Positions 14,121-48,098 of a stretch of 64,000 nt of DNA are shown here, in pieces; positions within the stretch are counted from its first letter, which is position 1, and each line of letters opens with the position of its first letter. The stretch comes from an uncultured bacterium (GTDB lineage: Bacteria; Joyebacterota; Joyebacteria; Joyebacterales; Joyebacteraceae): the NCBI GenBank assembly GCA_964516845.1, contig CAZEXP010000001.1:124665-188664 (forward strand), in the 5' to 3' direction. The position numbers and the translations under genes were made by a program. The notes under the pieces are model-generated. The model was given only the letters and a program-made list of their open reading frames with translations, did not search any database and was not told the DNA's origin.

Positions 14121-14245
14121 ACAGTCGTTCCTTCGGGGCGGGGTGCAACTCCCCACCGGCGGTCAAAGCCCGCGAGCGGGTCCTCCCGCAGAGCCTGTGG
14201 AATCCAGGCGCCGACAGTGAAAGTCTGGATGGGAGAAGGAACCGT
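14121..14245 (+). promoter_or_regulatory. FMN riboswitch (RFN element) aptamer
   Basis: cttcggggcggggtgcaactccccaccggcggtcaaagcccgcgagc ... ccgacagtgaaagtctggatgggagaagga matches the conserved RFN core nearly position for position. Confidence 0.85.
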
Positions 14246-16246: not shown

Positions 16247-17536
16247 ATGACGGGACAGAACGTCGAGCGGGCTATCCGGGAGATCCGCGAAGGACGGATG
16301 GTGATCGTCGTCGACGACGAGACGCGGGAGAACGAGGGCGACCTCATCATGGCCGCGGAGAAGATCACTCCTGAGGCCGTCAACTTCATCGCGAAGGAGG
16401 GGCGGGGGCTCATCTGTGTGCCCATGACCGGCGAGGATCTCGACGAGCTGGATCTCCATCCGATGGTGGCCGACAACACATCACGAATGAGCACGGCGTT
16501 CGCGGTCTCCGTCGACGCGATCGAGGGAACGACGACCGGAATCTCCGCCCACGACCGGTCGACGACGATACGAGCCCTGGTCGATCCCGCCACGAAGCCG
16601 CGCGATCTGGCGCGGCCCGGGCACATCTTCCCGCTGCGGGCCGCCGACGGTGGTGTGCTCAGGCGGGCCGGCCACACCGAGGCCGCGGTCGACCTGGCGC
16701 GTCTGGCCGGCCTCCAGCCGGCAGGCGTGCTCTGCGAGATCATGAGCGATGACGGGAGCATGGCGCGGCTGCCCGAACTCCGGGAACTGTCGGAGCGGCA
16801 CGGACTGGCGCTCGTGAGCATCAAGGACCTCATCGCGTACCGACAGCGCACGGAGCGACTGGTGCGACGCGTGGCCGAGACGAAACTCCCGACGCGCTGG
16901 GGGGAGTTTCGACTGTACCTCTACGAGAACGATGTCGACGATCAGGAGCACATCGCCCTCGTCAAGGGAGACCCGAAGCCGGACCAGGACGTGCTCGTCC
17001 GCGTGCACTCCGAGTGTCTGACGGGCGACGTATTCGGTTCACGCCGCTGTGACTGCGGCACCCAGCTGGCGCACGCGTTGGCGATGATCGACCGTGAAGG
17101 CACCGGCGTGTTCCTCTACATGCGACAGGAAGGCCGTGGCATCGGTCTCGGGAACAAGCTGAGGGCCTACGCGCTCCAGGACGATGGTCGCGACACGGTC
17201 GAGGCGAACGAGGACCTCGGGTTCCCCGCCGACCTCCGGGACTACGGCGTGGGGGCGCAGATGCTCGCCGACCTCGGCGTGCGCCGCATCCGCCTGCTGA
17301 CCAACAACCCGCGGAAGATCATCGGTCTCGAGGGACACGGTCTGGCGATCGTCGAACGCGTCCCGATCCAGATCGCTCCGAACGAGCGCAACAAGCAGTA
17401 TCTGGCGACGAAACGCGACAAACTGGGACACTATCTGGACCTGGAGCCGTGTGACGTGGGCGCCGACGAGAACGTGGAAGCGACCGGCGAGCCGTCCGAG
17501 GACGAGGTCATCAACACGCAGGGAGGCAAGCGATGA
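16247..17536 (+). CDS. ribBA: Bifunctional 3,4-dihydroxy-2-butanone-4-phosphate synthase / GTP cyclohydrolase II
   Basis: [16 protein letters not shown] (DHBP synthase) and CDCGTQL...GRGIGL (GTP cyclohydrolase II). Confidence 0.9.
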
Positions 17537-18000
17537 GCAAGGTGTACGAAGGACACATCACGGGAGAGGGACGGTCGTTCGGGATCGTGGTCTCGCGCTT
17601 CAACGAATTCATCTCACTCAAGCTGCTCGAAGGGGCGATGGACTGTCTCAGGCGCCACGGCGTTGACGACTCCGACATCACGATCGTCTGGGTCCCGGGC
17701 GCCTTTGATGTGCCGCTCCTGGCCAAGAGAATGGGTGACTCCGGTTCGCATGATGCGGTACTATGCCTCGGTGCGGTCATCCGTGGCGGGACGCCGCACT
17801 TCGACTATGTGGCGGCGGAAGTCGCGAAGGGTGTTGCACATGCGGGGATGGAGACCGGCGTTCCGACGGTCTTCGGTGTCCTCACGGCCGACAGTATCGA
17901 GCAGGCGATCGAACGCGCGGGCACCAAGGCCGGAAACCGGGGGTGGGATGCCGCCATGGCCGCCATGGAGCTCGCCGACCTCTACGCAAGGATGGAGTAG
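17533..18000 (+). CDS. ribH: 6,7-dimethyl-8-ribityllumazine synthase
   Basis: [12 protein letters not shown]...[10 protein letters not shown]...GTPHFDYV. Confidence 0.9.
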
Positions 18001-18001
18001 C

Positions 18002-18466
18002 TTGCCGCAAGACAGGAAGGGCGGGACCGGCACACGGCGGGAGGGCAGGGAGCTGGCGCTCAAGCTGCTCTATCGCGAGGAGGTGACCGGGGTGACGGAG
18101 GGTCCGATTCCGGAGATTGACGAAGCCCGCGAGGACGCCCTGGTGTTCGCCGAAGAGATCGTCGATGGCGTGCGCGAACATCACGACGAGATCGATCGTC
18201 TGATCGGAGCCGCCAGCGAGCACTGGGATATCCCGCGCATGGGCGCCGTCGACAGGACCGTGCTGCGTATCGGCGCATACGAGCTGCTGTGTGTCCCCGA
18301 CACCCCTGTTGGCGTTGTGATCAACGAAGCCGTCGAGATCGCGAGGAAGTACTCATCGAATGAGGGCGCGCGCTTTGTCAACGGCGTGCTCGACCACGTT
18401 GCGCGCGACGCGCGCGATGCCTCCGGGACGGACAGCCCGGAGGCCGAGGACGTGCAGGCCGGCTGA
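18002..18466 (+). CDS. nusB: Transcription antitermination factor NusB (TTG start)
   Basis: RELALKLLY...RIGAYELL...INEAVEIARKY...RFVNGVLD. TTG at 18002 is preceded by aaggatggag inside the ribH 3' end. Confidence 0.8.
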   Translation: MPQDRKGGTGTRREGRELALKLLYREEVTGVTEGPIPEIDEAREDALVFAEEIVDGVREHHDEIDRLIGAASEHWDIPRMGAVDRTVLRIGAYELLCVPDTPVGVVINEAVEIARKYSSNEGARFVNGVLDHVARDARDASGTDSPEAEDVQAG

Positions 18467-18490
18467 GCAACAGCATCGCCAGGAGGCATC

Positions 18491-19216
18491 GTGCGCTGTC
18501 TCATCGCGACGGATATCCACAGCAATATCGAAGCGCTTGAAGCAGTCCTCGAGGATGCCTCGGAACTCGGCTGTGACACGTATCTCTGCCTCGGCGACAT
18601 CGTCGGGTACGGAGCGAGCCCGGGCGAGACTCTCGCAGTCGTACGTGACCGGTTCGACACGGTCGTTCGGGGGAACCACGACGCCGCCGTCATCGATGTG
18701 GCGGAGAGCTTTCGCTTCAACGAGCATGCACGCGCCGCCATCGAGTGGACACGCACCGAGCTGACATCCGCCGATCAAGAGTACATCAAGGGGCTTCCCC
18801 TGACGGAGCACGTCGACGGTGTCCGGCTCGTTCACGCGAGTCCCGAGGACCCGGCGGCGTGGAATTACGTCAAGGACACGATGGGCGCGTCGTACCAGTT
18901 CGAGGCGTTCGAGGAGCAGTTCTGTCTGATAGGGCACACGCACATCCCGCTCGTGGTCTCGCTCGCGGGCGGCACGCTCCGCGCGGAGACAGGGTCACTC
19001 ATCCGGCTGCGCCCGAACATCCGCTACCTCGTCAACGTGGGCAGCGTCGGACAGCCGCGTGACGGCGACCCGCATGCGGCGTACGGGGTTCTCGATCTCG
19101 AGGCGGGGAGTCTCGAGCTGAGGCGGGTGAAGTACCGCGTGAAGCGCGCCCGGCGGAAGATCCTCAACGCCGGGCTGCCGGAGTTTCTCGGGGAGAGGCT
19201 CCTGGACGGGGTCTGA
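18491..19216 (+). CDS. Calcineurin-like metallophosphoesterase (YfcE/MJ0936 family)
   Basis: DIHSN...GDIVGYG...GNHD...GHTH motifs. Confidence 0.75.
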   Translation: MRCLIATDIHSNIEALEAVLEDASELGCDTYLCLGDIVGYGASPGETLAVVRDRFDTVVRGNHDAAVIDVAESFRFNEHARAAIEWTRTELTSADQEYIKGLPLTEHVDGVRLVHASPEDPAAWNYVKDTMGASYQFEAFEEQFCLIGHTHIPLVVSLAGGTLRAETGSLIRLRPNIRYLVNVGSVGQPRDGDPHAAYGVLDLEAGSLELRRVKYRVKRARRKILNAGLPEFLGERLLDGV

Positions 19217-19292
19217 TCAGCGCACGACCAGGCGATTGCTTGGGACGCTGCACCTCGGGTCGCGCCGCGTCCGGCGACCCCACGGAGGTTCG

Positions 19293-20225
19293 ATGATTCG
19301 AGTGAGCGCCGGAGTGATGGCGTACAACGAGGAGAAGAACATCGAGCGGCTGCTCGAGGCCCTCTCCGCACAGAACCTCAAGACGGTGGAGATCCGCGAG
19401 ATCATCGTGGTCTCGAGCGGTTCGACCGACGCGACCGACGGGATCGTGAGACGCTGGTCGTCCCGTGACGGGCGTGTGCGGCTGATCCGCCAGGAGGAGC
19501 GTCGCGGGAAATCATCCGCCATCAATCTTTTCCTTGCGGAGGCCCGCAAGGACACCGATGTCTACGTGCTCGAGAGCGGGGACACCGTGCCCCATCCGGA
19601 CTGCGTCGAGAACATGGTCGCGCCGTTCGCCGATGAGACGGTCGGGATGACCGGAGGACGGCCGACGCCGGTCGATGACGCCGACACGTTCATGGGATTC
19701 GTCGTTCACATGCTCTGGCGGCTGCACCACCGGTTGGCTCTGAAGACGCCGAAGCTCGGGGAGATGGTCGCGTTTCGCTCGTTCGTCACGAGGATCCCGC
19801 CCGAGAGCGCCGTCGATGAAGCATCTATCGAGGCCATCGTCGTCGAGCGCGGCAAGAGACTGCTCTACGCTCCCGAGGCCATCGTGTACAACAAGGGTGC
19901 CGCCACCGTGCGTGACTTCCTCAAGCAGCGCCGCAGGATCTATGCAGGACATCTCTGGCTCGAACGGGAACAGTCGTATGAGGTCTCGACCAAGAAGGTC
20001 GGCGGCATCCTCTCGGTACTCGTCGAGGACTTCCGGTTCTCGCCGAGGAATCTCGCATGGACGCTGAGCGGCGTCTGGCTCGAGTTCGTCGGCCGGCTTC
20101 TCGGGCTGTTCGATTTCCACGTCCTGGGCAGGAACCCTTTCACGTGGGACGTCTCCGAGACCACGAAGGACCTCAGCGACGTGCCGCCCGCCCACGCTCA
20201 CACCCGCACATCCGGAGACTCATGA
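19293..20225 (+). CDS. Glycosyltransferase family 2
   Basis: ATG 19293 with RBS ggagg. GT-A N-terminus (GVMAYNEEKNIERLLEAL) and acidic sugar-binding segment (SGSTDATD). Confidence 0.75.
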   Translation: MIRVSAGVMAYNEEKNIERLLEALSAQNLKTVEIREIIVVSSGSTDATDGIVRRWSSRDGRVRLIRQEERRGKSSAINLFLAEARKDTDVYVLESGDTVPHPDCVENMVAPFADETVGMTGGRPTPVDDADTFMGFVVHMLWRLHHRLALKTPKLGEMVAFRSFVTRIPPESAVDEASIEAIVVERGKRLLYAPEAIVYNKGAATVRDFLKQRRRIYAGHLWLEREQSYEVSTKKVGGILSVLVEDFRFSPRNLAWTLSGVWLEFVGRLLGLFDFHVLGRNPFTWDVSETTKDLSDVPPAHAHTRTSGDS

Positions 20226-21331
20226 TGCTGGGCGTCCTCGCTCGCATACCGCTCTACGGGGCGATGCGCACCTTCGGCCGGCCGCGGATGCTGCCGCTCA
20301 ACCTTACGGTGAGCGTGACCTACCGGTGCAACTCGCGTTGCCGCACCTGCAATGTCTACGAGCGGGAGGCGGTGGAGTTCACGTCAGAGGAGTTCGCGCG
20401 GGTGTTCCGCTCGCTGGGTCGCGCTCCGTACTGGTACACCATGAGCGGCGGAGAGCCGTTCCTCAGAAAGGATCTGCCCGAGATCTGCGCGAGCGCAGCC
20501 GAGGCCGGGGCGCCGGGCATCATCAACATCCCGACCAACGGCATCCTCAGCGATCGGATCCCGGACATGGTGCGGGAGATCGCGAGGGCGTGCCCGCGGA
20601 CTCAGATCATCATCAACCTGTCGATCGACGAGATCGGGGAACGGCACGACGAGATCCGGGGCGTCCCGGGCAACTTCGAGCGCGCGATGCGGACGTACGA
20701 GGGGCTCCGGGCGATCGACGCGTCCAACCTGACGGTCGGCGTGCACACGGTCATCTCGGTGCACAATGTCGCCCGCATCCCGGAGATCTACCGTCACGTC
20801 ATGCGTGACCTCGCGCCGGACTCCCTCATCACCGAAATCGCTGAGGAGCGCGTGGAACTCGGGACGCTGAACAGCGGCGTCACGCCGGCGCCGGGCGACT
20901 ACGCCGCCGCTGTCGACTTCCTCTCGGCCCGCCTGAAGGAGGAGGAGTTCCACGGGATCAGCCGCATCACGCAGTCGTTCCGCATCCGCTACTACGAGAT
21001 GGTCAAGCGCTACCTGCGGGAGCGGCGGCAGATCATCCCGTGCTACGCGGGAATCGCCTCGGCGCAGATCGCTCCCGACGGCGACGTCTGGTTCTGCTGC
21101 ATCGAGGCGACGTCCGTGGGCAACCTGCGAGACAGCGGATACGATTTCGGGGCCGTCTGGTTCGGCGAGGCGGCGGGCGAGCTCCGGCAGCGCGTGCGCG
21201 ACGGCCTCTGTTCTTGTCCGCTTGCCAACGCCGGATACACCAACATGCTGATGCACCCACCGACGCTGGCGTCCGTCGCCGCGCGGCTGGCGGTCCCGCA
21301 TCGCGCTCAGCGCGCGGGGGGCAAGCGATGA
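20222..21331 (+). CDS. Radical SAM enzyme with C-terminal SPASM/twitch-like Cys cluster
   Basis: CNSRCRTC (CxxxCxxC). C-terminal Cys-rich region CYAG...FCC...CSC. ATGA overlap with the upstream GT2. Confidence 0.8.
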   Translation: MMLGVLARIPLYGAMRTFGRPRMLPLNLTVSVTYRCNSRCRTCNVYEREAVEFTSEEFARVFRSLGRAPYWYTMSGGEPFLRKDLPEICASAAEAGAPGIINIPTNGILSDRIPDMVREIARACPRTQIIINLSIDEIGERHDEIRGVPGNFERAMRTYEGLRAIDASNLTVGVHTVISVHNVARIPEIYRHVMRDLAPDSLITEIAEERVELGTLNSGVTPAPGDYAAAVDFLSARLKEEEFHGISRITQSFRIRYYEMVKRYLRERRQIIPCYAGIASAQIAPDGDVWFCCIEATSVGNLRDSGYDFGAVWFGEAAGELRQRVRDGLCSCPLANAGYTNMLMHPPTLASVAARLAVPHRAQRAGGKR

Positions 21332-22467
21332 GGGTCGTGCTCGGCGAGGTCCGCTCGTACGACGTTGCCGCCATCCGGAGTATGGTGGAGCGCGCTCTGG
21401 CCGACCTCGACATGTCCTTCGCGGGGGCGCGGACGGCGATCGTCAAGCCGAACATCGTGACGGGACGCCGTCCGGACTCGGGTGTCGTGACACATCCGGC
21501 CGTCGTCGAGGCGATCGTGCAGATGCTCCGGGACGCCGGGGTGTCGCGTATCACTCTGGCGGACGGCCCCGGCGTCGGGCTCGACAGCGACTGGGTCTTC
21601 GAGAAATCCGGGTACCGGGCGCTGGCCGACAGGCTCGGCGTCGAGCTGGTGACGTTCAACGGGATTGCGCGGCGGAAGCGGGAGTGGAAGTACGGTGAGG
21701 TCGGGATCCCCGAGATACTCGAGGACGCCGATCTCTACATCAACGTGCCGAAGATGAAGACGCACGGCTACACGACCGTGACGCTCTCGATGAAGAATCA
21801 CAAGGGCATGCTCTCGCAGGCCGACAAGAAGCTCGATCATCACCTCGGGCTGCACGAGCCGCTGGCCGAACAGGCCCGTCTGCGTCCGCCCGACCTCATC
21901 GTGCTCGACGGGATCGTCGGGATCGAGGGAGACGGCCCTCTCAACGGCAAGCGCGTTCATGCGAACCTCCTGGCGGTCGGGACCAACATGCTCGCGGTCG
22001 ACGCGACCGTGGCAAGACACATGGGGATCGAACCGACCGAGATCAAGCATCTCGTGTTCGCGGCGGAGAAAGGCCTCGGGACGCTCGACCCGGACGTCAC
22101 AGGGACGGCTCCGACGCGCCGCTTCGCCAGGGCGAACGAGGAGTATGGACGGGTCGGCAACATCTACTCGTGGCGCGACTGCACGGCGTGCTCGATGTGC
22201 ATCGACTCGTTCGGCGGGGCGGTCTCACTGGCCCTCAAGGAGCCGCGGTACTGGTTCACGCTGGTTCCGAAGCTGGCATGGTGGGGGCTTATCGGAGGGC
22301 TGCACATCGTTCAGGGCCGCGAGGGTCGACTGCCGAACCGGCCGGGCAAGGTGATCTGCTTCGGGAAATGCACCGGCGAACTCGCCGCCCGAGAGGGTCT
22401 CACGCACCTGGCGGGATGTCCGCCGACGGCTCGTGAAGTGGCCGAGGCTCTCAGGAAAGGACTCTGA
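21328..22467 (+). CDS. DUF362-family protein with C-terminal Cys-rich (ferredoxin-like) region
   Basis: ATG 21328 in ATGA overlap. DUF362-like core (IVKPNIV...HPAVVEAIV...INVPKMKTH). C-terminal CTACSMC / CFGKC / GC motifs. Confidence 0.7.
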   Translation: MRVVLGEVRSYDVAAIRSMVERALADLDMSFAGARTAIVKPNIVTGRRPDSGVVTHPAVVEAIVQMLRDAGVSRITLADGPGVGLDSDWVFEKSGYRALADRLGVELVTFNGIARRKREWKYGEVGIPEILEDADLYINVPKMKTHGYTTVTLSMKNHKGMLSQADKKLDHHLGLHEPLAEQARLRPPDLIVLDGIVGIEGDGPLNGKRVHANLLAVGTNMLAVDATVARHMGIEPTEIKHLVFAAEKGLGTLDPDVTGTAPTRRFARANEEYGRVGNIYSWRDCTACSMCIDSFGGAVSLALKEPRYWFTLVPKLAWWGLIGGLHIVQGREGRLPNRPGKVICFGKCTGELAAREGLTHLAGCPPTAREVAEALRKGL

Positions 22468-22470
22468 CGG

Positions 22471-23310
22471 ATGGCCGTAGTCGACCGCGACACCGGTCTG
22501 GGGACCACGTACGAGCGCATCGCAGTGGCCTTGATGCTCGAGCGTTTCGCGGCGCGGCACGACGTGTCGCGCGTGCTCGAGGGGCCGGTGGACGGCATCA
22601 CGGGCATCGCCGGACTCAACAGCATTCCGCTCGCGCAGCGGGGAGCGCGGGTCGATCTTCTCCTTGGAGACAGCGGTCAGCGCGAACTCGCAGGGCGGAT
22701 CTGGCACGGTCTGGGGCTCGCGGACCGATCGAGCATCCGGGTGAGCGAGAACGGGATGCTGTCCGTCCCCGAGCGGTCATACGACCTGGTGTGGAACTTC
22801 AATGCGTTGCCGCAGTCGAAGGACCCCGCGCGCCTGGTCGCGGAGATGTGTGACGCCAGCAACCGCTACGTGATGATCTTCGTCTCGAACACGTGGAACT
22901 ACGGATTCCCGGTGCACCGTCTCCATCACCACGCGGCGCATGAGGACTGGACCCACGGCGACATCGCGTCGATGAACGTGCCCAAGATCGAACGGATGCT
23001 CCGGGACCGTGGATTCGCATCGCGAGAGCGCCTGGTCGTCGACACACCGTGGTGGCCCGACATCGACTCGCCGATCGAGGAGGTCATAGCGACCTTCCTT
23101 CCGTTCCTCAGGCGCCGGGTATCGGGTTCTAAGCGGCTCGAGCACTACACATGGACATGGGATGCCCTCCCGTATTTCGACATGGACAAGCGGAAGCGGC
23201 TGATGGACGAGATCGGAAAGCACTTCGTCATCGAACGTTCGGCTCCGGGCGCGCTGAAGATCCTGTTCGCACATCACCGCGGCGTGCTGGCCGAGAGGAC
23301 GAACGAGTGA
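22471..23310 (+). CDS. Putative class I SAM-dependent methyltransferase-like protein
   Basis: Glycine-rich loop VLEGPVDGITGIAG and acidic segment YDLVWNFNAL. Weak family assignment. Confidence 0.5.
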   Translation: MAVVDRDTGLGTTYERIAVALMLERFAARHDVSRVLEGPVDGITGIAGLNSIPLAQRGARVDLLLGDSGQRELAGRIWHGLGLADRSSIRVSENGMLSVPERSYDLVWNFNALPQSKDPARLVAEMCDASNRYVMIFVSNTWNYGFPVHRLHHHAAHEDWTHGDIASMNVPKIERMLRDRGFASRERLVVDTPWWPDIDSPIEEVIATFLPFLRRRVSGSKRLEHYTWTWDALPYFDMDKRKRLMDEIGKHFVIERSAPGALKILFAHHRGVLAERTNE

Positions 23311-24377
23311 GTCGTAGAAACCGCATACTGATCGCCCTCGTGGTCGGCTGCGTCCTGCTGGCCGTCGCCCTGAGGGGGCTTGATCTCAGGAGCATCGGCG
23401 CGCGCATCGGGAGCGCCGACCCGCGGTGGCTTGCGCTCGCAGCGTTGGTCTATCTCTCGGCCTACTTCGTGCGGAGCCTCAGGTGGCGTCTCATCCTGCG
23501 TCCGATCGAACGCGTCACCGTGCGTGAGAGCTTCGCGATGCTCATGGCCGGGTACTTTCTCAACTACCTCATCCCGATCCGTGCCGGCGAGGTTGCGAAG
23601 TCGTTCTTCCTGAAGCGCATGAAGGGCGTGCCGATCGCCACGAGCCTGCCGACCGTCTTCGTCGACAAGCTGCTCGAGCTCTTCTCGATACTGCTCGTCA
23701 TCGTGATGGTGCCGGTCCTGTCGGTTCGGCTCTCAGGATCACTCGCGTCTCTGATCGTTGCAGTCCTCGTTGTCTTCGTCATGGCTGTCGGGCTGCTGCT
23801 TCTCGCGATCCGGAAGCGCGAAGCTACGGTGCGGCTGATCTGCAGGCTCCTCTCGTGGCTTCCCCGCCGGGCGTACGATCGCATCTCTTCATGGCTGGGG
23901 TTGTTCATCAACGGACTGTCGATGTCGGCCTCGACGGTGCGTGGTCTGTGGGGACTGCTGGCGCTCACCGGCTGCGCGGTCCTGCTCGACGCCGTCTACT
24001 TCCGGCTGATGTTCCTGGCTTTCGACATTCCCGTGAGCTACCCGATCGTGCTCTTCGGCTATACACTGATATCCCTGTCGTATATTCTCCCGACACCGCC
24101 CGCGCAGATAGGCTACAACGAGATGATCATGGAGCTGATCTTCGCTGCCGGACTCGGAATGTCCCGTCCCGACGTGATGGTCGTCATGCTCCTCGCGCAC
24201 CCGCTGACGGGCATTCTCATCACATTGGTCGGGCTCTGGTCGTTCTCATCGATGAGCATTCGCCTGACGGAGAGCTTTCGGCAGATCGAGGAAGAAGGAG
24301 CACTCGCGGGAGCGTCCGCGGACGCGTGTCCGTCACCGGGACCACCGCGCATTGACCAGCAGGGGAGGAATCAGTGA
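23307..24377 (+). CDS. UPF0104 / lysylphosphatidylglycerol-synthase-TM-like (flippase-like) membrane protein
   Basis: GTG 23307 in GTGA overlap. N-terminus RILIALVVGCVLLAVALRGLDL...WLALAALVYLSAYFVRSLRW typical of the family. Eight predicted TM segments. Confidence 0.7.
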   Translation: MSRRNRILIALVVGCVLLAVALRGLDLRSIGARIGSADPRWLALAALVYLSAYFVRSLRWRLILRPIERVTVRESFAMLMAGYFLNYLIPIRAGEVAKSFFLKRMKGVPIATSLPTVFVDKLLELFSILLVIVMVPVLSVRLSGSLASLIVAVLVVFVMAVGLLLLAIRKREATVRLICRLLSWLPRRAYDRISSWLGLFINGLSMSASTVRGLWGLLALTGCAVLLDAVYFRLMFLAFDIPVSYPIVLFGYTLISLSYILPTPPAQIGYNEMIMELIFAAGLGMSRPDVMVVMLLAHPLTGILITLVGLWSFSSMSIRLTESFRQIEEEGALAGASADACPSPGPPRIDQQGRNQ

Positions 24378-25330
24378 AGCGCTATCTCGTGACCGGCGCG
24401 GCGGGCTTCATCGGCTCGCACCTGGCGGAACGTCTCATCGGTACCGGGGCCGAGGTCGTCGGGGTCGACTGCTTCACCGACTACTACAGGAGAGAGATCA
24501 AGGAGTCGAATCTCGAGAGTCTTCGGGGATCCGACCGCTTCCAAATCATTGAGGCGGACCTGGCGACCGCGGAACTCGAACCACTCCTCGACGGCGTCGA
24601 CGGGGTGCTTCACATGGCGGCCCAGGCGGGAGTACGCGCGAGCTGGGGCAGCAGCTTCCAGACCTACCTCGACTGCAACGTCCGCTCGACCCAGCGTCTC
24701 CTCGAGGCCGTCAAGGACCGGCCGCTGGACCGCTTCGTCTACGCCTCGTCCTCATCGGTCTACGGCCAGACGGACGATCTCCCCATGCGCGAACGCGGTC
24801 TGACCTGCCCGGTCTCGCCGTACGGGGTGACGAAGCTGGCCGGCGAACACCTGGCGGTTCTCTACCACCGGAACTACGGGGTCCCCACGGTCTCGCTGCG
24901 GTTCTTCACGGTCTACGGACCGCGGCAGCGCCCGGACATGGCGTTCCATCGCTTCCTCAGGGCGGGCATGCTTGGTCAGCCCGTCGAGATATACGGCGAC
25001 GGCCGCCAGACGCGCGATTTCACGTATGTCGATGATACCGTCAGCGGCATCGTGGCCGCTCTGGAGCAGGGGCCGCCCGGAGAGGTCTTCAATCTCGGAG
25101 GCGGGGGAAGCGTCACGCTCAACCATGCCGTCGACCTCATAGAGGGATTGGTCGGTCGAAGCCTCGACAGGAAATACGGCGACCAGCAGATGGGCGACGT
25201 CAGCGACACCCGCGCGGACAACTCGAAGGCGCGCGAGATTCTCGGATTCAAGCCAGCCTCGAGTCTCGAAGCGGGTCTTGCGAGAGAGTTCGAGTGGGTT
25301 GCCGGGCTTTATCGGAACGAATCGGTCTGA
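24374..25330 (+). CDS. NAD-dependent nucleotide-sugar epimerase/dehydratase
   Basis: VTGAAGFIGSHL Rossmann motif and SDR catalytic YxxxK segment (PYGVTK). Confidence 0.85.
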   Translation: MKRYLVTGAAGFIGSHLAERLIGTGAEVVGVDCFTDYYRREIKESNLESLRGSDRFQIIEADLATAELEPLLDGVDGVLHMAAQAGVRASWGSSFQTYLDCNVRSTQRLLEAVKDRPLDRFVYASSSSVYGQTDDLPMRERGLTCPVSPYGVTKLAGEHLAVLYHRNYGVPTVSLRFFTVYGPRQRPDMAFHRFLRAGMLGQPVEIYGDGRQTRDFTYVDDTVSGIVAALEQGPPGEVFNLGGGGSVTLNHAVDLIEGLVGRSLDRKYGDQQMGDVSDTRADNSKAREILGFKPASSLEAGLAREFEWVAGLYRNESV

Positions 25331-25346
25331 CGAAGGAGTGACACAC

Positions 25347-26291
25347 ATGACGGTGACGATACTGATCCCGCTCTACAACGAAGAGGGGAGTCTCCGGGAA
25401 CTCGTGGAGGCCATCTCGGCGGCGATGTCGCCAACGGGCTGGGCCTGGGAGATCCTCTTCATCAATGACGGGAGCACGGACGGGTCCCTCGATATACTTC
25501 GTGAGCTGTACGACTCGCGGGACAACATCGAGGTCATCTCTTTCGGACGGAACAGCGGGAAGGCGGCCGGCCTGGCCGTCGGGTTCGCCGAGGCGCGGGG
25601 CGACGTGGTCATCACGATGGACGCGGACCTTCAGGACGATCCCGCCGAGATCCCCGGAATGATCCGGATGCTCGATGAGGGATACGACCTCGTCTCCGGC
25701 TGGAAGAAGGAGCGGCACGACCCACTGTCGAAGCGCATCCCGTCGAAGCTCTTCAACGGCGTCACACGGATGGTCAGCGGGCTGACGCTTCATGACATGA
25801 ACTGCGGCCTGAAGGCCTACCGGCGAGACGTCGTCAAGACCATCAGGGTCTACGGCGAGCTCCACCGGTACACGCCGGTCCTCGCACACTTTGCGGGTTT
25901 CCGTGTGACCGAGACCGTGGTCCGTCACCACGCAAGGAAGTTCGGTCAGTCGAAGTACGGCATCGAGCGGTTCGCGCGAGGCGGCTTCGATCTTCTCACG
26001 GTGCTCTTCCTGCGGCGCTATCTCACACGACCTCTCCACCTGTTCGGGATGCTCGGTTCCATCCTTTTCGCGGGCGGGTTCGGTATCGGCGTCTATCTCA
26101 CGGTCGTGAAGATCATGGGCGGAGCGATCGGCAGACGCCCGCTCCTGACCCTCGGCATCCTGCTGATGGTCGTCGGTGTCCAGTTCGTGTCGCTCGGGCT
26201 CCTCGGCGAGATGATCGCCAATCTCAGGAGCACCGGGATCACGTATCCTATCCTCGAGCACCTCAAGCCGCGCGGAGGGAGTCGTGGTTGA
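25347..26291 (+). CDS. Polyprenyl-phosphate sugar synthase, GT2 (GtrB/ArnC/DPM1-like) with C-terminal TM helices
   Basis: ILIPLYNEEGSL...INDGSTDGS...DADLQDDP...KYGIERF plus two C-terminal TM segments, the typical GtrB architecture. Confidence 0.8.
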   Translation: MTVTILIPLYNEEGSLRELVEAISAAMSPTGWAWEILFINDGSTDGSLDILRELYDSRDNIEVISFGRNSGKAAGLAVGFAEARGDVVITMDADLQDDPAEIPGMIRMLDEGYDLVSGWKKERHDPLSKRIPSKLFNGVTRMVSGLTLHDMNCGLKAYRRDVVKTIRVYGELHRYTPVLAHFAGFRVTETVVRHHARKFGQSKYGIERFARGGFDLLTVLFLRRYLTRPLHLFGMLGSILFAGGFGIGVYLTVVKIMGGAIGRRPLLTLGILLMVVGVQFVSLGLLGEMIANLRSTGITYPILEHLKPRGGSRG

Positions 26292-27474
26292 TGCGCCGAC
26301 CTCCGAGACCAGGGGTCTGACGGACGAGGCCGCTCGAATCGCGATCGTCGGGCCGGCCTATCCGCTGCGCGGCGGAAACGCGCTCTTCGTGGCGCATCTG
26401 CTCGATGCGCTACGGCAGGACCACGACGTGTACGTCGTCTCCTACAGCCGTCTCTACCCGGGGCTGCTCTTTCCCGGCAAGACGCAGATGAACGTCAGCC
26501 GTGACCCGGTGAAGACGACGCCATCGCGGCAGCTGGTTGACTCGATCAATCCCATCAGCTGGTTTCGGACAGCCCGATGGATCTGCGCGCCGAAACGTCG
26601 TCCCGACCTCGTCGTGTTCACGTGGTGGAACCCGTTCTTCGGACCGGCTCTCGGCGCGATCGCGCGACTTGTGAAGCGTGGATGCGGAGCCGGAGTGGTG
26701 TTCGTCGCTGAGAACGTGGTGTCACACGAGAACCGTTTCGTCGATCGCTTCCTGACTCGGTACGCTCTGGCGTCCGCCGACTACTTCCTCGTTCTCTCCG
26801 GGGTCGTGGCCCGGCGGATTCAGTCGCTCTTTCCGGGCGTCCCGGTGCGGCAGGCAGCGCTTCCCATCTATGACTGCTATCGCGCCGATGAGATCGACCG
26901 TGATGCGGTCCGGTCCAGACTCGGGCTGACGAAACCGACGATCCTCTTCTTCGGATACGTCCGAGCCTACAAGGGGCTTCAGTATCTGCTCGAAGCCATG
27001 CCGGCCGTTCTCGAGAAGCACGATGTCCAGCTTCTGGTCGTCGGCGAGTTCTACGATGAACAGCAGCGCTACGAACGGCTGATCGCCGCGCTTGATATCG
27101 GCGAGGCGGTCACCGTCGTCGCGGAGCACGTTCCCGATGAGGCTGTCGGCGAGTACTTCGTGGCGTCGGACGTCGTGGCACTCCCGTATCTCTCCGCGAC
27201 CCAGAGCGGGATCACCCAGATAGCGTACGCCTTCGGACTTCCCGTCATCAGCACGAACGTCGGCGGTCTTCCCGAGGTAGTCAAGGACGGGAGAACGGGC
27301 TATGTTGTAGAGTCGGGCAGCGCTGCGGCGCTCTCGGCCGCCATCGTCCGCTTCTTCGAGGGCGACGAGCAGGCGAAGCTGACACGCGGCGTCGCCGAAG
27401 AGGCGCGGGCCGACCAGGCGGGGGAACTCATGCGTCGCTCGATCGAGGACTTCCTCGAACTCAACAGGGGGTAG
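26284..27474 (+). CDS. Glycosyltransferase family 4 (GT-B)
   Basis: C-terminal GT4 block (YLSATQSGITQIAYAFGLPVISTNVGGLPEVV). Confidence 0.8.
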   Translation: MVDAPTSETRGLTDEAARIAIVGPAYPLRGGNALFVAHLLDALRQDHDVYVVSYSRLYPGLLFPGKTQMNVSRDPVKTTPSRQLVDSINPISWFRTARWICAPKRRPDLVVFTWWNPFFGPALGAIARLVKRGCGAGVVFVAENVVSHENRFVDRFLTRYALASADYFLVLSGVVARRIQSLFPGVPVRQAALPIYDCYRADEIDRDAVRSRLGLTKPTILFFGYVRAYKGLQYLLEAMPAVLEKHDVQLLVVGEFYDEQQRYERLIAALDIGEAVTVVAEHVPDEAVGEYFVASDVVALPYLSATQSGITQIAYAFGLPVISTNVGGLPEVVKDGRTGYVVESGSAAALSAAIVRFFEGDEQAKLTRGVAEEARADQAGELMRRSIEDFLELNRG

Positions 27475-27475
27475 C

Positions 27476-28384
27476 ATGCCGGACCCGGCGGTCACTGCGG
27501 TTGTGATCAACTGGAACGGGATACCCGTGATCGAGGCATGTCTCGCGTCGCTTCTCGACTCGACGTATGAGCGGCTCTCGGTTCTGGTGGTCGACAACGC
27601 CTCCGAGGACGATTCGGTCTCCGTCATCCGAGAACGCTACCCGGCCGTCCGCATCGAAAGTACAGGGAGGAATCTCGGCTACGCCGGGGGCGCGAATCAC
27701 GGCCTCAGGGCCGCGCGCGCTTCCGGGGCGGCGTATGTTCTCCTGATGAATAACGACGTGGAGATCGCGCCGGATGCCGTTGGGGAGCTGGTTCGGGCCG
27801 CCGAGGAACACCCGGACGCCATGCTGCTCGGTCCGAAGATCTACTACTTCGACCGGCCGGACGTCATCTGGTCCGCCGGTGGGGTCGTGTCGTTCTGGAC
27901 CGGCAACATCCGGCACCTGGGGATCCGGGAGCAGGACCACGGGCAGTTCGACGAACTCCGCGAGGTCGACTATCTGACGGGGTGCGCCGTGCTGCTCCCG
28001 GCGCGGACGCTCGAGACGGTCGGCGAGCTCGATGAGACGTACTACATGTACAACGAGGACACCGACTGGTCGACCCGCGTCATACGGTCGGGCGGAAAGG
28101 TCCTCTACGTGCCGTCGGCCCGGCTCTGGCACAAGGTGTCGTCGAGTTCGGGAGGGGGCCTGACGAGCTACAAGATCTATCACCGGATACGCAGCACGCT
28201 GGCGTATTTCAGACGATATGCGGCGTGGTACCAGTGGTTCGGCATCCTGCCCGCGACAGCGGCGCGGACGATCACGTTCGCCTTTGCGCAGATAGCGCAC
28301 GGCGAGGGGGGGCGCGTCTCAGCGCTCATTCGCGGGATAGCCGACGGCGCCACGGGGAGGCGGAGGGGCTACACGAATGACTAG
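27476..28384 (+). CDS. Glycosyltransferase family 2 (rhamnosyltransferase-like)
   Basis: VVINWNGIPVIEACLASL...VVDNASEDDS...LLMNNDV...TGCAVLL. Confidence 0.8.
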   Translation: MPDPAVTAVVINWNGIPVIEACLASLLDSTYERLSVLVVDNASEDDSVSVIRERYPAVRIESTGRNLGYAGGANHGLRAARASGAAYVLLMNNDVEIAPDAVGELVRAAEEHPDAMLLGPKIYYFDRPDVIWSAGGVVSFWTGNIRHLGIREQDHGQFDELREVDYLTGCAVLLPARTLETVGELDETYYMYNEDTDWSTRVIRSGGKVLYVPSARLWHKVSSSSGGGLTSYKIYHRIRSTLAYFRRYAAWYQWFGILPATAARTITFAFAQIAHGEGGRVSALIRGIADGATGRRRGYTND

Positions 28385-29783: not shown

Positions 29784-29806
29784 TCGTGTTCCAACCCGGG
29801 AGAGAC

Positions 29807-30916: not shown

Positions 30917-30941
30917 AGCCGCGCTGAGCAGAGAGAGGGCT

Positions 30942-39365: not shown

Positions 39366-39385
39366 GCCTGACAGGAGGTACTGAT

Positions 39386-43427: not shown

Positions 43428-44408
43428 GTGGAGTACACGGTCACCTCACATGTGGATGCAAGGTCGTGGGACGACCTCGTCGCGGGGGACCGTTCAGCGA
43501 GCTTCTTCCAGAGCCGCGTCTGGTCCGAGGTGCTCTCGAGCACACTCCCGGACCACGAGCCGCTCTTCGTCGCGGCGCATCGTGGTGACGAACTCGTCGC
43601 CGGGATTCCCGTCATCCGGCGCAGCCGCGGTCCCGTGATGGTCGTCGAATCGATGCCGTTCGGAACCTACGGCGGCGTGCTCACCACCGACAGGGCGCCG
43701 TCGCAGGCCGCCGCGGAGCTCGTCCTTGCGTTGCTGGACGCCGTCGACGGGATCACGGTCGGGCAGATCCGCATCGTGGATTTCAACGGACGACTCGCGG
43801 ACGCTTGCGACGGATTCGAGCCCGTGACAAGCGAGGCGCAGGTGCTCGATCTCGACCGCCCGTACGATGATGTCTGGGCGGGATTCCGCTCGTCGGTGCG
43901 CAACAAGGTCCGCAAGGCCGAGAAGGCCGGCGTGACGATTCGCGAGGCGCGCGGGACGGATGACTTTCATGCGTATCATCGGCTCCTCGAGGAATGCTCC
44001 GAACGTTGGGGAACGACCAACTCGTTTGATGAGGACTTCTTCGCCGCCCTCGCCGAGAGCGGCAGCGACGCGGTCCAGATGTGGCTCGCGGAGTACGATG
44101 GAGAGATCATAGGCGGAGATCTGAACTTCGTCACTGCTACCTCGGTGTTCAACTGGGGCAATGTCTCGCACCGGGAGTCCGCCAGCCTCGGCACGGTCCC
44201 GCTCCTTCATGCGAACGCCATCGAGGACGGTTGTCGCCGCGGACTGACGACGTACAATCTCGGCGGAAGCGGCGGGATCGACGCCGTCGCCAGGTTCAAG
44301 TCGGCATTTGGAACGAGGTGTGTTCCGTACACCGAGTACGTGCTCGAGAAGGGATGGATGAAGCTCGGGAAGCGTCTCAGGGGACGCATCGAAGGAGACG
44401 CAGCGTGA
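43428..44408 (+). CDS. FemAB/BioF2-like GNAT-fold acyltransferase
   Basis: GTG 43428 with RBS aggagg 8 nt upstream. FemAB-family-like length and pattern (NKVRKAEKAGV...YHRLL...YNLGGSGG). Family call is tentative. Confidence 0.55.
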   Translation: MEYTVTSHVDARSWDDLVAGDRSASFFQSRVWSEVLSSTLPDHEPLFVAAHRGDELVAGIPVIRRSRGPVMVVESMPFGTYGGVLTTDRAPSQAAAELVLALLDAVDGITVGQIRIVDFNGRLADACDGFEPVTSEAQVLDLDRPYDDVWAGFRSSVRNKVRKAEKAGVTIREARGTDDFHAYHRLLEECSERWGTTNSFDEDFFAALAESGSDAVQMWLAEYDGEIIGGDLNFVTATSVFNWGNVSHRESASLGTVPLLHANAIEDGCRRGLTTYNLGGSGGIDAVARFKSAFGTRCVPYTEYVLEKGWMKLGKRLRGRIEGDAA

Positions 44409-48091: not shown

Positions 48092-48098
48092 CTTTCCA

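Follow-up and report, generated by a model that had tools for sequence, protein, structure and literature searches.

A radical SAM gene embedded among glycosyltransferase genes raises the question of what its product acts upon, a sugar, a peptide or some other scaffold. We addressed this question for a 64,000-nucleotide stretch of DNA (referred to below as the window), in which five plus-strand genes form the opening part of a glycan operon of about 29 kb. In order, they encode a family-2 glycosyltransferase (GT2a; 19293..20225), the radical SAM enzyme (rSAM; 20222..21331), a DUF362 protein (21328..22467), a methyltransferase-fold protein (22471..23310) and a membrane protein (23307..24377). 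Inspection of the sequence revealed that these genes abut through ATGA/GTGA overlaps or a single 3-nt gap. The GT2a stop codon (TGA, 20223-20225) overlaps the rSAM start codon (ATG, 20222; an alternative in-frame ATG is present at 20225), the DUF362 start codon (ATG, 21328) overlaps the rSAM stop codon (TGA, 21329-21331), 3 nt separate the DUF362 stop codon (22465-22467) from the following ATG (22471), and the stop codon of the methyltransferase-fold gene (TGA, 23308-23310) overlaps the GTG start codon (23307) of the membrane protein gene. Hence, the ATGA overlaps that the original prediction had described for the GT2-rSAM-DUF362 junctions are borne out by the coordinates.

Gene overlaps are by themselves frequent in high-GC operons. 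The packing observed here reflects more than chance, because an 11-gene block is syntenic in 18 of 18 Eisenbacteria-type (source-phylum) loci and because the GT2-rSAM pair is kept across phyla and domains. The first gene of the block encodes a metallophosphoesterase (18491..19216, plus strand; Pfam Metallophos_2, 63.3 bits) and is found upstream of GT2a in 17 of the 18 loci. Elsewhere, rSAM orthologues have unrelated phosphoesterases as neighbors, namely a 454-aa Metallophos protein in loci L021 and L018 and NUDIX in Cloacimonadota. Metagenome contigs carrying an identical 279-aa protein possess the same gene set (310/368/379/279/356 aa) according to independent gene calls.

The rSAM protein comprises 369 amino acids (368 when translation starts at 20225), lacks TM helices and exceeds the Pfam cut-offs for both Radical_SAM (59.6 bits; cut-off 29.5) and SPASM (28.6 bits; cut-off 21.5). 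It contains a CX3CX2C motif and, in its C-terminal part, a CX12GX4C element followed by CXC, which together supply four conserved auxiliary-cluster cysteines; among 95 divergent representatives of the rSAM family, about 90% retain them. The CX2CX5CX3C block, the second motif of a full SPASM domain, was absent when we checked the motifs of the same 95 representatives. Since four auxiliary cysteines provide for one auxiliary cluster, the earlier assignment as a SPASM/twitch-type enzyme can be stated more exactly: the protein is twitch-like rather than of the full SPASM type. A further cysteine, Cys293, is specific to the orthologues and conserved in only 46 of 96 aligned sequences. The best NCBIfam score of rSAM was 65.4 bits (cut-off 400), and we found no curated family and no paper covering the GT2-rSAM module.

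Its partner GT2a is a soluble or peripheral glycosyltransferase of the COG1215 type with 310 amino acids (PF00535, 88.9 bits; PF13641; PF13632). The reading frame opens with TTG at 19236, and ATG 19293 is the probable start, an independent gene call likewise giving 310 aa. D46, D97, D175-E176 and Q212-R-R-R are near-invariant. Because prediction of TM segments yielded none in GT2a, we infer rather than observe that this enzyme associates with the membrane.

Comparison of rSAM with its relatives furnished the decisive evidence. These relatives are encoded in 541 of 599 pattern-matched stretches of a species-level genome collection, that is, in at least 541 genomes. Eighty loci, whose rSAM proteins are 52-89% identical, were kept for comparison; 18 of these are Eisenbacteria-type and 62 lie outside the source phylum, and they include Methanoperedens, Methanothrix, Methanomicrobiales, Methanomassiliicoccales, Chloroflexota, Cloacimonadota, Omnitrophota and Syntrophorhabdus. 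GT2a orthologues were identified in 59 of the 80 loci, including 41 of the 62 outside the source phylum, where they mostly lie directly upstream of rSAM on the same strand. When ORFs were clustered, GT2a was recovered in 58 loci, on the same strand as rSAM in all 58 and adjacent to it in 53. The 21 extra-phylum loci without a GT2a orthologue within 8 kb belong to Ktedonobacteria (12), Calditrichota (4) and others (5). By comparison, outside the source phylum the methyltransferase-fold gene accompanies rSAM in 13, DUF362 in 10 and LPG_synthase_TM (the family of the fifth gene product) in four of the 62 loci, with gene orders shuffled. Hence, GT2a and rSAM form the conserved core, to which the DUF362, methyltransferase-fold and flippase-like proteins are accessory. 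Glycosyltransferase neighbors are present in most loci, so that homologs do occur in glycan loci as anticipated. This context is not universal since the Cloacimonadota pair follows nusB among housekeeping genes, beside only a NUDIX gene and one gene of unknown function.

Could the substrate be a peptide? The original prediction saw no room for a RiPP precursor and no RRE domain, and our searches agree on both counts. All ORFs of at least 20 aa between 18400 and 24400 fall inside a large gene, and intergenic gaps do not exceed 24 nt, except for at most about 76 nt before GT2a, so that there is no space for a separate precursor ORF. Ahead of its CX3CX2C motif rSAM has only 35 residues, and a Pfam search gave no RRE/PqqD match. 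None of the 80 related loci revealed a small ORF family conserved next to rSAM across phyla; the only conserved small ORF, a 91-aa zinc-ribbon protein, is confined to seven Ktedonobacteria loci, where it lies at variable distance. The view of rSAM as a RiPP or protein maturase with its substrate gene at another site, such as one for a glycopeptide that a SunS-like GT2 helps to make, would draw on this zinc-ribbon ORF, on the above-threshold SPASM match and on the peptide maturases SkfB, SuiB, ChlB and PqqE among the nearest solved structures of rSAM. We nevertheless consider it very improbable, given the missing precursor space, RRE match, cross-phylum ORF family and second SPASM cluster motif, and a score of 19.2 bits with the SunS model (cut-off 350).

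Also quite improbable, if a shade less so, is a glycosylated small-molecule cofactor or metabolite in the manner of mycofactocin, in which a scaffold other than a glycan would be assembled or altered by rSAM and then decorated by GT2a. The mycofactocin locus likewise combines a radical SAM/SPASM protein (MftC) with a GT2 (MftF), MftF is the best NCBIfam match of GT2a, and rSAM weakly matches MftC; yet these scores (61.7 bits for MftF, cut-off 280; 54.6 bits for MftC, cut-off 265) lie far below their cut-offs, and MftA-like precursor and MftB-like ORFs, an RRE and the second SPASM cluster motif are all absent here. The isolated pair after nusB in Cloacimonadota, and the regulators, methyltransferase and PRPP synthetase nearby in Ktedonobacteria loci, would suit such a cofactor, while glycosyltransferase and GT-C genes abound in most neighborhoods.

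The genes downstream of the five-gene set are those of a glycan pathway. They encode an extended SDR of the NDP-sugar epimerase/dehydratase type (24374..25330, plus strand; PF01370, 199.9 bits) and an ArnC/DPMS-like polyprenyl-phosphate sugar GT2 (25347..26291, plus strand) with C-terminal TM segments at residues 255-316, whose score with the PRK10714 ArnC model (205.7 bits) is below that model's own cut-off of 529. A GT4 (26284-27474), a GT2 (27476-28384) and a membrane-anchored alkaline-phosphatase-superfamily protein (28377-29783), all on the plus strand, assigned by Pfam and syntenic in the Eisenbacteria-type loci, close the phylum-wide block. Further along the operon lie a second AlkP/sulfatase-superfamily protein (30942-32729; Pfam) and the GT-C enzymes YfhO (34085-36499) and GT87 (44081-45727). 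The presence of two AlkP/sulfatase-superfamily genes in the same operon might suggest that rSAM is an anSME-like maturase installing formylglycine in their products. This we regard as scarcely credible: neither protein contains the (C/S)x(P/A)xR formylglycine motif, the best Pfam model of both is Phosphodiest and not Sulfatase, their co-occurrence with rSAM is practically confined to the source phylum, and anSME has two auxiliary clusters whereas rSAM has the cysteines for one.

The accessory proteins fit their original descriptions at the level of family and fold. The DUF362 protein (plus strand; PF04015, 164.5 bits) had been taken for an Fe-S protein; its conserved C-terminal cysteines do derive from a ferredoxin motif, here degenerate, which remoter members carry as two copies of CX2CX2CX3CP, and a [4Fe-4S] site is probable. 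Its invariant residues are K40, D86, K144, H146, K156, H171, D194, D225, C288, C344 and C348, and a sequence search found no relative in the PDB. DUF362 and LarA belong to one Pfam clan. The product of the fourth gene (plus strand) gave no match in Pfam and NCBIfam profile searches, while its AF2 model (pLDDT 85.5) confirmed the class I methyltransferase fold that had been suggested: the best Foldseek matches are AtmM, RebM and MitM (E about 1e-12), and the cyclase SpnF was also found. Its motif I is non-canonical (LE-x-P-x2-G-x2-G-x2-G), and the family motifs are kept in archaeal and bacterial orthologues; the missing canonical GxGxG motif counts against the explanation that we favor below. 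The protein encoded by the fifth gene (plus strand) is flippase-like, as proposed; it has several hydrophobic segments and is a multi-pass LPG_synthase_TM protein of the MprF/AglD/HpnL type (PF03706, 147.8 bits; TIGR00374, 97.2 bits). Its gene accompanies rSAM in Dehalococcoidia and Ktedonobacterales loci.

Gene context and fusions suggest that rSAM acts on the sugar pathway. Within its family we found fusions to a GT4 (P0312), to a multi-pass TM domain (P0279) and to a PTPS_related membrane domain (P0338). The TM domain of P0279 reached 24.6 bits with LPG_synthase_TM (Pfam threshold 33.4), and BLASTP and hhalign detected no significant similarity to the LPG_synthase_TM protein of the window. 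Recurring neighbors comprise small DPMS-like GT2s (30-37 of 80 loci), UbiA prenyltransferases (7), geranylgeranyl-reductase-like proteins (5), GT-C-like membrane proteins (PMT_2, YfhO-like) and GT4. We consider it somewhat better than an even chance that the locus is the front of an envelope-glycoconjugate operon in which GT2a installs a membrane-associated sugar that rSAM oxidizes or epimerizes. Soluble tailoring, in which rSAM and an SDR would modify an NDP- or nucleoside-linked sugar before its transfer by GT2a, as with DesII/BlsE, is unlikely but deserves weight. The SDR is present in 26 of the 62 extra-phylum loci, and in 13 of all loci it immediately adjoins rSAM; about 29 of 80 loci have a NUDIX or metallophosphoesterase gene next to the pair; and neither GT2a nor rSAM has TM helices. 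The fusions to multi-pass membrane domains (P0279, P0338), the recurrence of UbiA, geranylgeranyl-reductase-like, DPMS-like GT2, GT-C and LPG_synthase_TM neighbors, and the order GT2a before rSAM in almost every locus with both genes, speak against it.

The identities, motifs and folds of the gene products, the synteny and the fusions are observed. For remodeling of a sugar already installed by GT2a, the reading that we prefer, we infer the acceptor, the order of the steps and the type of reaction as follows. GT2a would transfer a sugar from a nucleotide sugar to a membrane-associated acceptor (a lipid or a polyprenyl-phosphate-linked intermediate), and the translationally coupled rSAM would then remodel it, most likely by radical oxidation or epimerization. 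The cluster bound by CX3CX2C would cleave SAM, and the resulting 5'-deoxyadenosyl radical would take a hydrogen atom from a sugar carbon. The substrate radical so formed might be oxidized to a keto-sugar, which the co-occurring SDR could re-reduce, by way of the one Cys4-ligated auxiliary cluster, or it might be quenched from the opposite face by Cys293; either route would amount to net oxidation or epimerization without O2. Twitch enzymes that oxidize or epimerize sugars are known (PMC10991966 and its reference list): Cys249 serves as hydrogen donor in the twitch enzyme NeoN, and HygY is a twitch epimerase with latent dehydrogenase activity. In the source phylum, DUF362, the divergent methyltransferase-fold protein and the MprF/AglD/HpnL-type protein would be add-ons; a redox partner and a second sugar isomerase are both conceivable roles for DUF362, the MprF/AglD/HpnL-type protein may hold or translocate the lipid-linked product, and the last steps, export and transfer onto the envelope, may fall to the ArnC-like GT2 and the GT-C enzymes (YfhO, GT87). 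That the pair recurs in numerous bacterial phyla as well as in archaea of the methane cycle points to an uncharacterized, O2-independent remodeling of a sugar and not of a peptide.

Among known systems, the hopanoid proteins HpnI/HpnJ/HpnL/HpnA are of the same types (GT2, radical SAM, LPG_synthase_TM-type, SDR) but are not orthologous to those of the window. HpnJ is a B12-domain radical SAM protein and not a twitch enzyme. The rSAM family also occurs in archaea, which to our knowledge lack hopanoids, and the window contains no squalene-hopene cyclase. No Hpn model was among the listed NCBIfam matches of GT2a, of the LPG_synthase_TM protein or among the best 25 of 43 of rSAM; HpnA scored 74.4 bits with the SDR (cut-off 367.65) and HpnB 36.3 bits with the second GT2 (cut-off 379.25). 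The likeness lies in the logic: in the hopanoid pathway a GT2 glycosylates a membrane lipid and the adjacent radical SAM enzyme remodels the head group, and these loci also carry an SDR and a membrane protein of the AglD/MprF type whose role is unknown (PMC13459092; bioRxiv 10.1101/2025.07.29.667474). Such GT2-plus-radical-SAM remodeling of lipid head groups is known for HpnI/HpnJ and for the radical SAM calditol synthase Cds of Sulfolobus. Independently of O2, Cds has been proposed to remodel a hexose head group already joined to an isoprenoid membrane lipid, in a pathway for which an unidentified phosphatase has been postulated (PMC13459092). Phosphoesterase genes flank the GT2-rSAM pair as well, a likeness to Cds drawn from its description only. 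Cds homologs are reported mainly from acidophiles, whereas neutrophilic anaerobes and methanogens harbor the rSAM family.

The aminoglycoside twitch dehydrogenases and epimerases BtrN, SpeY, HygY and NeoN resemble rSAM only in the radical SAM core and serve soluble secondary metabolites in actinomycete clusters, in contrast to the GT2-paired rSAM family of many bacterial phyla and archaea. The cytosylglucuronate decarboxylase BlsE (TIGR04466, 50.1 bits; cut-off 400) and DesII act on nucleoside- or nucleotide-linked sugars of antibiotic pathways. We know of no radical SAM, DUF362 or methyltransferase-fold protein in the Arn, GtrABC/CsbB-YfhO or DprE1/DprE2-UbiA-GT-C systems for lipid-linked sugars. 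The operon nevertheless recalls them through its ArnC-like GT2, SDR, candidate flippase, YfhO and GT87, to which related loci add UbiA and PMT_2, and the proposed chemistry parallels that of DprE1/DprE2, in which a lipid-linked sugar is epimerized by oxidation and subsequent reduction.

The window has a GC content of about 65%, is coded almost wholly on the + strand, and contains five tightly packed genes: GT2a, a family-2 glycosyltransferase (19293-20225, +; Pfam Glycos_transf_2); the radical SAM enzyme, hereafter rSAM (20222-21331, +; Pfam Radical_SAM and SPASM); a DUF362 protein (21328-22467, +; Pfam DUF362); a methyltransferase-fold protein (22471-23310, +; no Pfam family); and a membrane protein (23307-24377, +; Pfam LPG_synthase_TM). 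The TGA stop codon of GT2a (20223-20225) is part of the sequence tcATGATGctg, in which rSAM may start at the ATG of either position 20222 or 20225. The rSAM stop codon (TGA, 21329-21331) overlaps the ATG of the DUF362 gene (21328); the latter ends at 22467 and is followed by the ATG (22471) of the methyltransferase-fold gene, whose TGA (23308-23310) overlaps the GTG start codon (23307) of the membrane-protein gene. Independent gene calls on metagenome contigs encoding an identical 279-amino-acid protein gave the same five genes, with products of 310, 368, 379, 279, and 356 amino acids. Together with the junction sequences, these calls confirm the packing through start/stop overlaps that the original prediction had described.

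Proteins of the radical SAM superfamily (PF04055) bind the SAM-cleaving [4Fe-4S] cluster through a CX3CX2C motif in a partial TIM barrel. rSAM is a member of this superfamily with a canonical motif (C36/C40/C43), and its AF2 model is confident (pLDDT 88.8). Its C-terminal region carries the arrangement C274-X12-G287-X4-C292, C293, and C330-X-C332, with every one of these residues invariant among close orthologues; C274, C292, C330, and C332 are retained in about 90% of 95 divergent full-length representatives, and C293 in no more than 46 of the 96 sequences aligned. Full SPASM domains, with two auxiliary clusters, possess the seven-cysteine pattern CX9-15GX4C ... CX2CX5CX3C ... C, while twitch domains are truncated SPASM-like C-terminal domains with the ligands for a single auxiliary Fe-S cluster. 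The CX2CX5CX3C block that provides ligands to the second SPASM cluster is absent, and rSAM hence lacks the full signature, even though the Pfam SPASM model matches residues 274-332 with 28.6 bits (cut-off 21.5). The domain falls among the twitch domains, and rSAM is therefore a twitch-type enzyme with one predicted, fully Cys-ligated auxiliary cluster and an orthologue-specific additional cysteine beside a ligand; the twitch half of the earlier SPASM/twitch assignment stands, and the full SPASM half does not. The N-terminal helix of rSAM was considered as evidence for membrane binding and discarded, since it is weakly amphipathic (muH 0.55).

The predicted cluster content also bears on the possibility that rSAM serves as an anSME-like enzyme in formylglycine maturation of the alkaline-phosphatase-superfamily (AlkP-like) proteins of the operon. 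Anaerobic sulfatase-maturating enzymes contain two auxiliary clusters and act on sulfatases with a (C/S)xPxR motif. rSAM, however, possesses cysteines for just a single auxiliary cluster, and the (C/S)x(P/A)xR formylglycine motif is present in neither AlkP-like protein of the operon; we consequently disfavor this function.

GT2a matches PF00535, PF13641, and PF13632, and its orthologues carry a COG1215-type name in the JGI annotation. Enzymes of this cellulose/PNAG-synthase-like kind adopt a GT-A fold and are characterized by D, DxD-like, catalytic (E/T)D, and Q(Q/R)xRW-like motifs. Near-invariant in GT2a are D46, D97, D175-E176, and Q212-R-R-R, with the last motif ending in I-Y instead of W; the protein lacks TM helices.

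An HMMER search across all 1.84 billion representatives clustered at 50% identity recovered 528 proteins of the rSAM family (E ≤ 1e-30). Close relatives (57-73% identical) occur across Eisenbacteria, Chloroflexi, and Anaerolineae, and identity between archaeal and bacterial members exceeds 50%; we found neither a curated model nor a publication covering the family. When one genome per species (185,579 species) was scanned with two family-specific peptide patterns, at least 599 stretches matched, at least 541 of which encode an rSAM relative, and 80 loci were kept. Those at 52-62% identity are found in archaea (Methanoperedens, Methanothrix, Methanomicrobiales, Methanomassiliicoccales) and in Syntrophorhabdus, Dehalococcoidia, Anaerolineae, Ktedonobacteria, Cloacimonadota, Calditrichota, Omnitrophota, Armatimonadota, Gemmatimonadota, Aminicenantes, and PVC bacteria.

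We compared the neighborhoods of these loci by three concordant methods: tblastn with the window proteins, de novo clustering of ORFs, and HMMs built from the clusters. In all 18 loci of the Eisenbacteria type, the block phosphoesterase-GT2a-rSAM-DUF362-methyltransferase-fold-LPG_synthase_TM-SDR-ArnC-like GT2-GT4-GT2-AlkP-like is conserved as far as the contigs extend. The 80 loci are a non-random sample, picked by the two peptide patterns, ranked by similarity, and evaluated from ORF-based gene calls within 8 kb; among the 62 outside the source phylum, a GT2a orthologue (HMM score of about 500 bits) is present in 41, the SDR cluster in 26, the methyltransferase-fold protein in 13, DUF362 in 10, and LPG_synthase_TM in four. 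Co-occurrence of rSAM homologues with glycosyltransferase and DUF362 genes, which had been proposed as a check on the original prediction, is hence found beyond this phylum as well. ORF clustering placed GT2a on the same strand as rSAM in each of the 58 loci in which it was found and next to it in 53 of them. Gene order is shuffled: in Methanoperedens, GT2-GT2a-rSAM is succeeded by genes for DUF362, the methyltransferase-fold protein, and a GT4 on the other strand; Dehalococcoidia have GT2a-rSAM-methyltransferase-fold-DUF362-LPG_synthase_TM; and two loci of the Anaerolineae type have methyltransferase-fold-rSAM-SDR. Other recurrent neighbors are small DPMS/ArnC-like GT2s (30-37 loci), UbiA-family prenyltransferases (seven loci), geranylgeranyl-reductase-like flavoproteins (five loci), PMT_2 and other multi-TM GT-C-like proteins, GT4 enzymes, NUDIX proteins (nine loci), and a different Metallophos family of phosphoesterases (two loci). 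At the Candidatus Methanoperedens nitroreducens locus (12504-16859 of L040), a UbiA-family prenyltransferase gene overlapping a PMT_2 GT-C gene, followed by a geranylgeranyl-reductase-like gene, lies beside GT2a-rSAM-DUF362-methyltransferase-fold-GT4, an arrangement that recalls decaprenyl-phosphoribose/arabinose donor systems.

In Cloacimonadota, the pair resides in a housekeeping context (phoH-nusB-GT2a-rSAM-unknown-NUDIX-valS), which indicates that GT2a and rSAM can stand alone; the position behind nusB, common to Cloacimonadota and the window, suggests ancient synteny within the FCB group. The stretch from nusB to valS was seen in a Cloacimonadaceae locus (6662-10320 of L070) and in six similar loci, with the unknown gene encoding a protein of 243 amino acids. 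Neither this protein nor other unknown neighbors (259 and 254 amino acids in L028, 841 in L023, and 427 in L075) could be recognized by hhalign as diverged methyltransferase-fold, DUF362, LPG_synthase_TM, GT2a, or phosphoesterase proteins (all probabilities ≤0.7%); two members of this set are multi-TM, GT-C-like proteins.

No GT2a was found within 8 kb in 21 of the 62 loci outside the source phylum (12 from Ktedonobacteria, four from Calditrichota, and five others). In Ktedonobacteria, rSAM without an adjacent GT2a adjoins genes for sigma-70 region 4, HTH, and methyltransferase proteins, and the enzyme is possibly used differently there. A conserved zinc-ribbon ORF of 91 amino acids is located at variable distance from it (9242-9517 in L050, with equivalents in L054, L055, L056, L059, L068, and L071), and in Dictyobacter (L034) a PRPP synthetase gene is adjacent to rSAM.

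Radical SAM enzymes that mature RiPPs, such as MftC, PqqE, or the sactisynthases, are typically recognized by an RRE/PqqD-like domain, either fused or provided by a partner protein, and by a precursor ORF nearby. We found no PqqD/RRE domain in rSAM, in which no more than 35 residues lie ahead of the CX3CX2C motif, and the MftC and PqqE models score 54.6 and 51.0 bits against cut-offs of 265 and 381, respectively. More generally, no NCBIfam equivalog comes near its cut-off: ScmE tops 43 weak matches with 65.4 bits versus 400, and the best 25 of the 43 all lie below threshold. All ORFs of at least 20 amino acids in the region 18400-24400 were listed in a search for a free-standing precursor, and the small ones are all nested in large genes. 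Clustering of small ORFs (25-119 amino acids, mostly intergenic, within 5 kb of rSAM) from the 80 loci yielded no family conserved across phyla; the sole conserved family is the zinc-ribbon ORF, with its variable distance and its restriction to Ktedonobacteria. Maturation of a peptide by rSAM is accordingly disfavored, and the absence of precursor and RRE noted from the sequence alone is borne out. A mycofactocin-like function, suggested by the pairing of a radical SAM enzyme with a glycosyltransferase, is likewise disfavored: in addition to the low MftC score, GT2a matches MftF (TIGR03965) with 61.7 bits versus 280 and in its N-terminal GT-A half only, and the window contains no mft genes.

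The assignments of the three accessory proteins made in the original prediction also held. Members of the PF04015 family are often linked with Fe-S binding domains. The window DUF362 protein matches PF04015 with 164.5 bits (cut-off 24) and has invariant polar residues (K40, D86, K144, H146, K156, H171, D194, D225) and invariant cysteines (C288, C344, C348); C291 and C364-P are kept in the subgroup of the window type. More divergent DUF362 proteins encoded in the loci compared terminate in a pair of canonical CX2CX2CX3CP ferredoxin motifs; the window type therefore represents a degenerate ferredoxin domain, and its cysteines suggest that it probably keeps one Fe-S cluster. Searches for structurally solved relatives (phmmer and profile search) returned nothing significant, and LarA is undetectable by sequence; in Pfam, DUF362 and the LarA N-terminal domain are placed in one clan, CL0471 (PMC11770544). 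A fusion of DUF362 to CBM9 noted in metagenomes (PMC5742341) offers an independent, weak link to carbohydrates. NCBIfam searches gave nothing above cut-off for either the DUF362 or the methyltransferase-fold protein.

The 279-amino-acid protein is modeled with a class I methyltransferase fold (AF2 pLDDT 85.5, pTM 0.87), and Foldseek found 817 PDB matches with E ≤ 0.001, headed by AtmM, RebM, and MitM (E about 1e-12, TM 0.5-0.6) and including SpnF, a protein with this fold that is not a methyltransferase. Its motif I reads LE-x-P-x2-G-x2-G-x2-G throughout the family, archaeal members included, in place of the canonical E/DxGxGxG; the window protein matches no Pfam or NCBIfam methyltransferase model, although some orthologues match PF08241 (e.g., that of Methanoperedens, E 8e-9). 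Judged from its model, the protein is methyltransferase-like, with methyl transfer as a putative activity. The membrane protein, with its multiple hydrophobic segments, is a clear member of LPG_synthase_TM/TIGR00374 (PF03706, 147.8 bits versus 33.4; TIGR00374, 97.2 versus 43.2) and is by family name predicted to be flippase-like. This family takes in the flippase domain of MprF, the C-terminal region of AglD, and HpnL (bioRxiv 10.1101/2025.07.29.667474).

Several fusions occur among the rSAM-family representatives listed. P0312 has an N-terminal GT4 domain, which bears no specific similarity to the GT4 of the window; P0338 is joined to a PTPS_related membrane domain, P0255 to HEAT/LRV repeats, and P0279 to a domain with at least six TM segments. 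The latter matches LPG_synthase_TM over positions 7-293 of 302 with 24.6 bits, below the cut-off of 33.4, which is the sole support for homology to the window membrane protein (BLASTP E 0.38; hhalign 1.5%); lacking significant similarity to that protein, P0279 provides only a suggestive link. As a set, these domain architectures link the rSAM family with glycosyl transfer and with the membrane. In another representative, P0280 (745 amino acids), an intein (Intein_splicing, 62.9 bits) splits the radical SAM core from the twitch domain.

These data are best explained by a conserved, translationally coupled GT2a-rSAM pair in which rSAM would tailor, at the membrane or close to it, a sugar that GT2a handles, because accessory genes recur in shuffled order across domains, because the family is fused to GT4 and membrane domains, because the surrounding operon is rich in polyprenyl-phosphate GT2s and GT-C enzymes, and because neither a peptide substrate nor an RRE was found. 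The main rival is that a nucleotide sugar is tailored before its transfer; the adjacency of the SDR gene (24374-25330) and of NUDIX/phosphoesterase genes favors this order of events, as does the fact that both GT2a and rSAM are devoid of TM helices. Returning to tailoring after transfer, we envisage that GT2a would transfer a sugar to a lipid or to an acceptor linked to a lipid and that rSAM would then take a hydrogen atom from a carbinol carbon of this sugar. The radical could be oxidized via the auxiliary cluster to a ketone that the SDR might reduce, or could alternatively be quenched by Cys293; either route would result in oxidation or epimerization. This is the most likely mechanism, for which we infer reaction type, acceptor, and step order. 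Such a reaction type falls within the repertoire documented for sugar-acting twitch enzymes, which includes the dehydrogenases BtrN and SpeY, NeoN with its cysteine as hydrogen donor, and HygY, an epimerase that turns into a dehydrogenase when one cysteine is lost (PMC10991966 and its reference list). rSAM may instead catalyze an HpnJ/Cds-like ring contraction or a BlsE-like decarboxylation.

Closest in logic are the hopanoid side-chain set, comprising HpnI (GT2), HpnJ (radical SAM), HpnL (LPG_synthase_TM type), and HpnA (SDR), and the archaeal calditol synthase Cds (PMC13459092). Closest in enzyme class are the twitch sugar dehydrogenases and epimerases. To our knowledge, apart from HpnJ and Cds, two genetically defined cases that concern lipid head groups, radical SAM enzymes acting on carbohydrates have been described almost exclusively in antibiotic pathways. 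Membership in any of these families is unsupported: no Hpn, Mft, or BlsE model comes near its NCBIfam cut-off (for rSAM, among the best 25 of 43 matches), and rSAM lacks the full SPASM signature. Our literature searches found no publication that joins DUF362 with radical SAM enzymes, nor one that joins the latter with polyprenyl phosphate, glycosyltransferase, and epimerase. The rSAM family can thus be described as large, cross-domain, and uncharacterized, with a defined GT2 partner; its kind, radical SAM carbohydrate or head-group tailoring, is already known, and there is a realistic chance of new chemistry. It is a rather doubtful proposition that the GT2-twitch-radical SAM pair forms the core of an undescribed O2-independent pathway, common to methane-producing and methane-oxidizing archaea and to many phyla of anaerobic bacteria, that leads to a radically remodeled glycolipid head group or lipid-linked sugar, with DUF362 as a novel LarA-related enzyme that modifies sugars in an Fe-S-dependent manner. 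Its reactions may include a calditol- or cyclitol-like ring contraction, or a radical SAM dehydrogenase and SDR may replace flavin-dependent epimerization of the DprE1/DprE2 type. The near-obligatory partnership with GT2a amounts to a two-gene system open to direct testing, from which new anaerobic sugar chemistry and a function for DUF362 and the divergent methyltransferase-fold family could emerge, perhaps along with a new glycolipid of the envelope or a new lipid-linked sugar; such a molecule would be relevant to the membrane biology of archaea and bacteria and to lipid biomarkers of anoxic sediments.

Upstream of the module lie selA, a SPOR-protein gene, smc, and ftsY, then an FMN riboswitch (RF00050, 110.7 bits; 14125-14244, +) that precedes ribD-ribE-ribBA-ribH(17533-18000)-nusB, and a metallophosphoesterase gene. 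A scan for promoters and terminators (17000-31000) gave nothing exceeding shuffled expectation; with no terminator-like site above chance between nusB and the glycan genes, read-through from the rib/nusB unit is possible. The five genes are followed, in order, by the extended SDR, an ArnC-like GT2 with C-terminal TM helices, GT4, GT2, an AlkP-superfamily protein, GT9, a second AlkP-like membrane protein, a Wzx-like flippase, YfhO (a GT-C enzyme), GT2, a GT2 fused to Bac_transf (initiating transferase), a T9SS-tailed protein, PglF-like, DegT-like, and FemAB-like genes, and finally GT87 (a GT-C enzyme), GT4, and GT2, reaching about 47.8 kb. This gene set places the module at the head of a long operon for envelope glycoconjugates built from lipid-linked sugar donors. 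The second AlkP-superfamily protein (30942-32729, +) resembles LTA synthases or phosphoethanolamine transferases in architecture, its N-terminal domain containing about five TM segments, and may decorate the glycan with a phospho-substituent. In mid-operon (39311-40729, +) lies the gene for a protein with Reg_prop repeats and a weak C-terminal sorting domain of the T9SS type; this domain agrees with the FCB-group affinity of the best protein matches, MAG proteins labeled Candidatus Eisenbacteria.

Two further features lie outside the glycan genes. The presence of the selenocysteine synthase SelA (6218-7645, +; 435.8 bits) indicates that the organism probably makes selenoproteins. A bacterial microcompartment locus (48005-54828, +) encodes a PduL-type phosphotransacylase, two BMC-H shell proteins, EutN/BMC-P, an aldehyde dehydrogenase, an RnfC/PduS-like Fe-S flavoprotein, a tandem-BMC shell protein, a second EutN, and a class II aldolase, and looks like an aldolase-type metabolosome for sugar-derived aldehydes.
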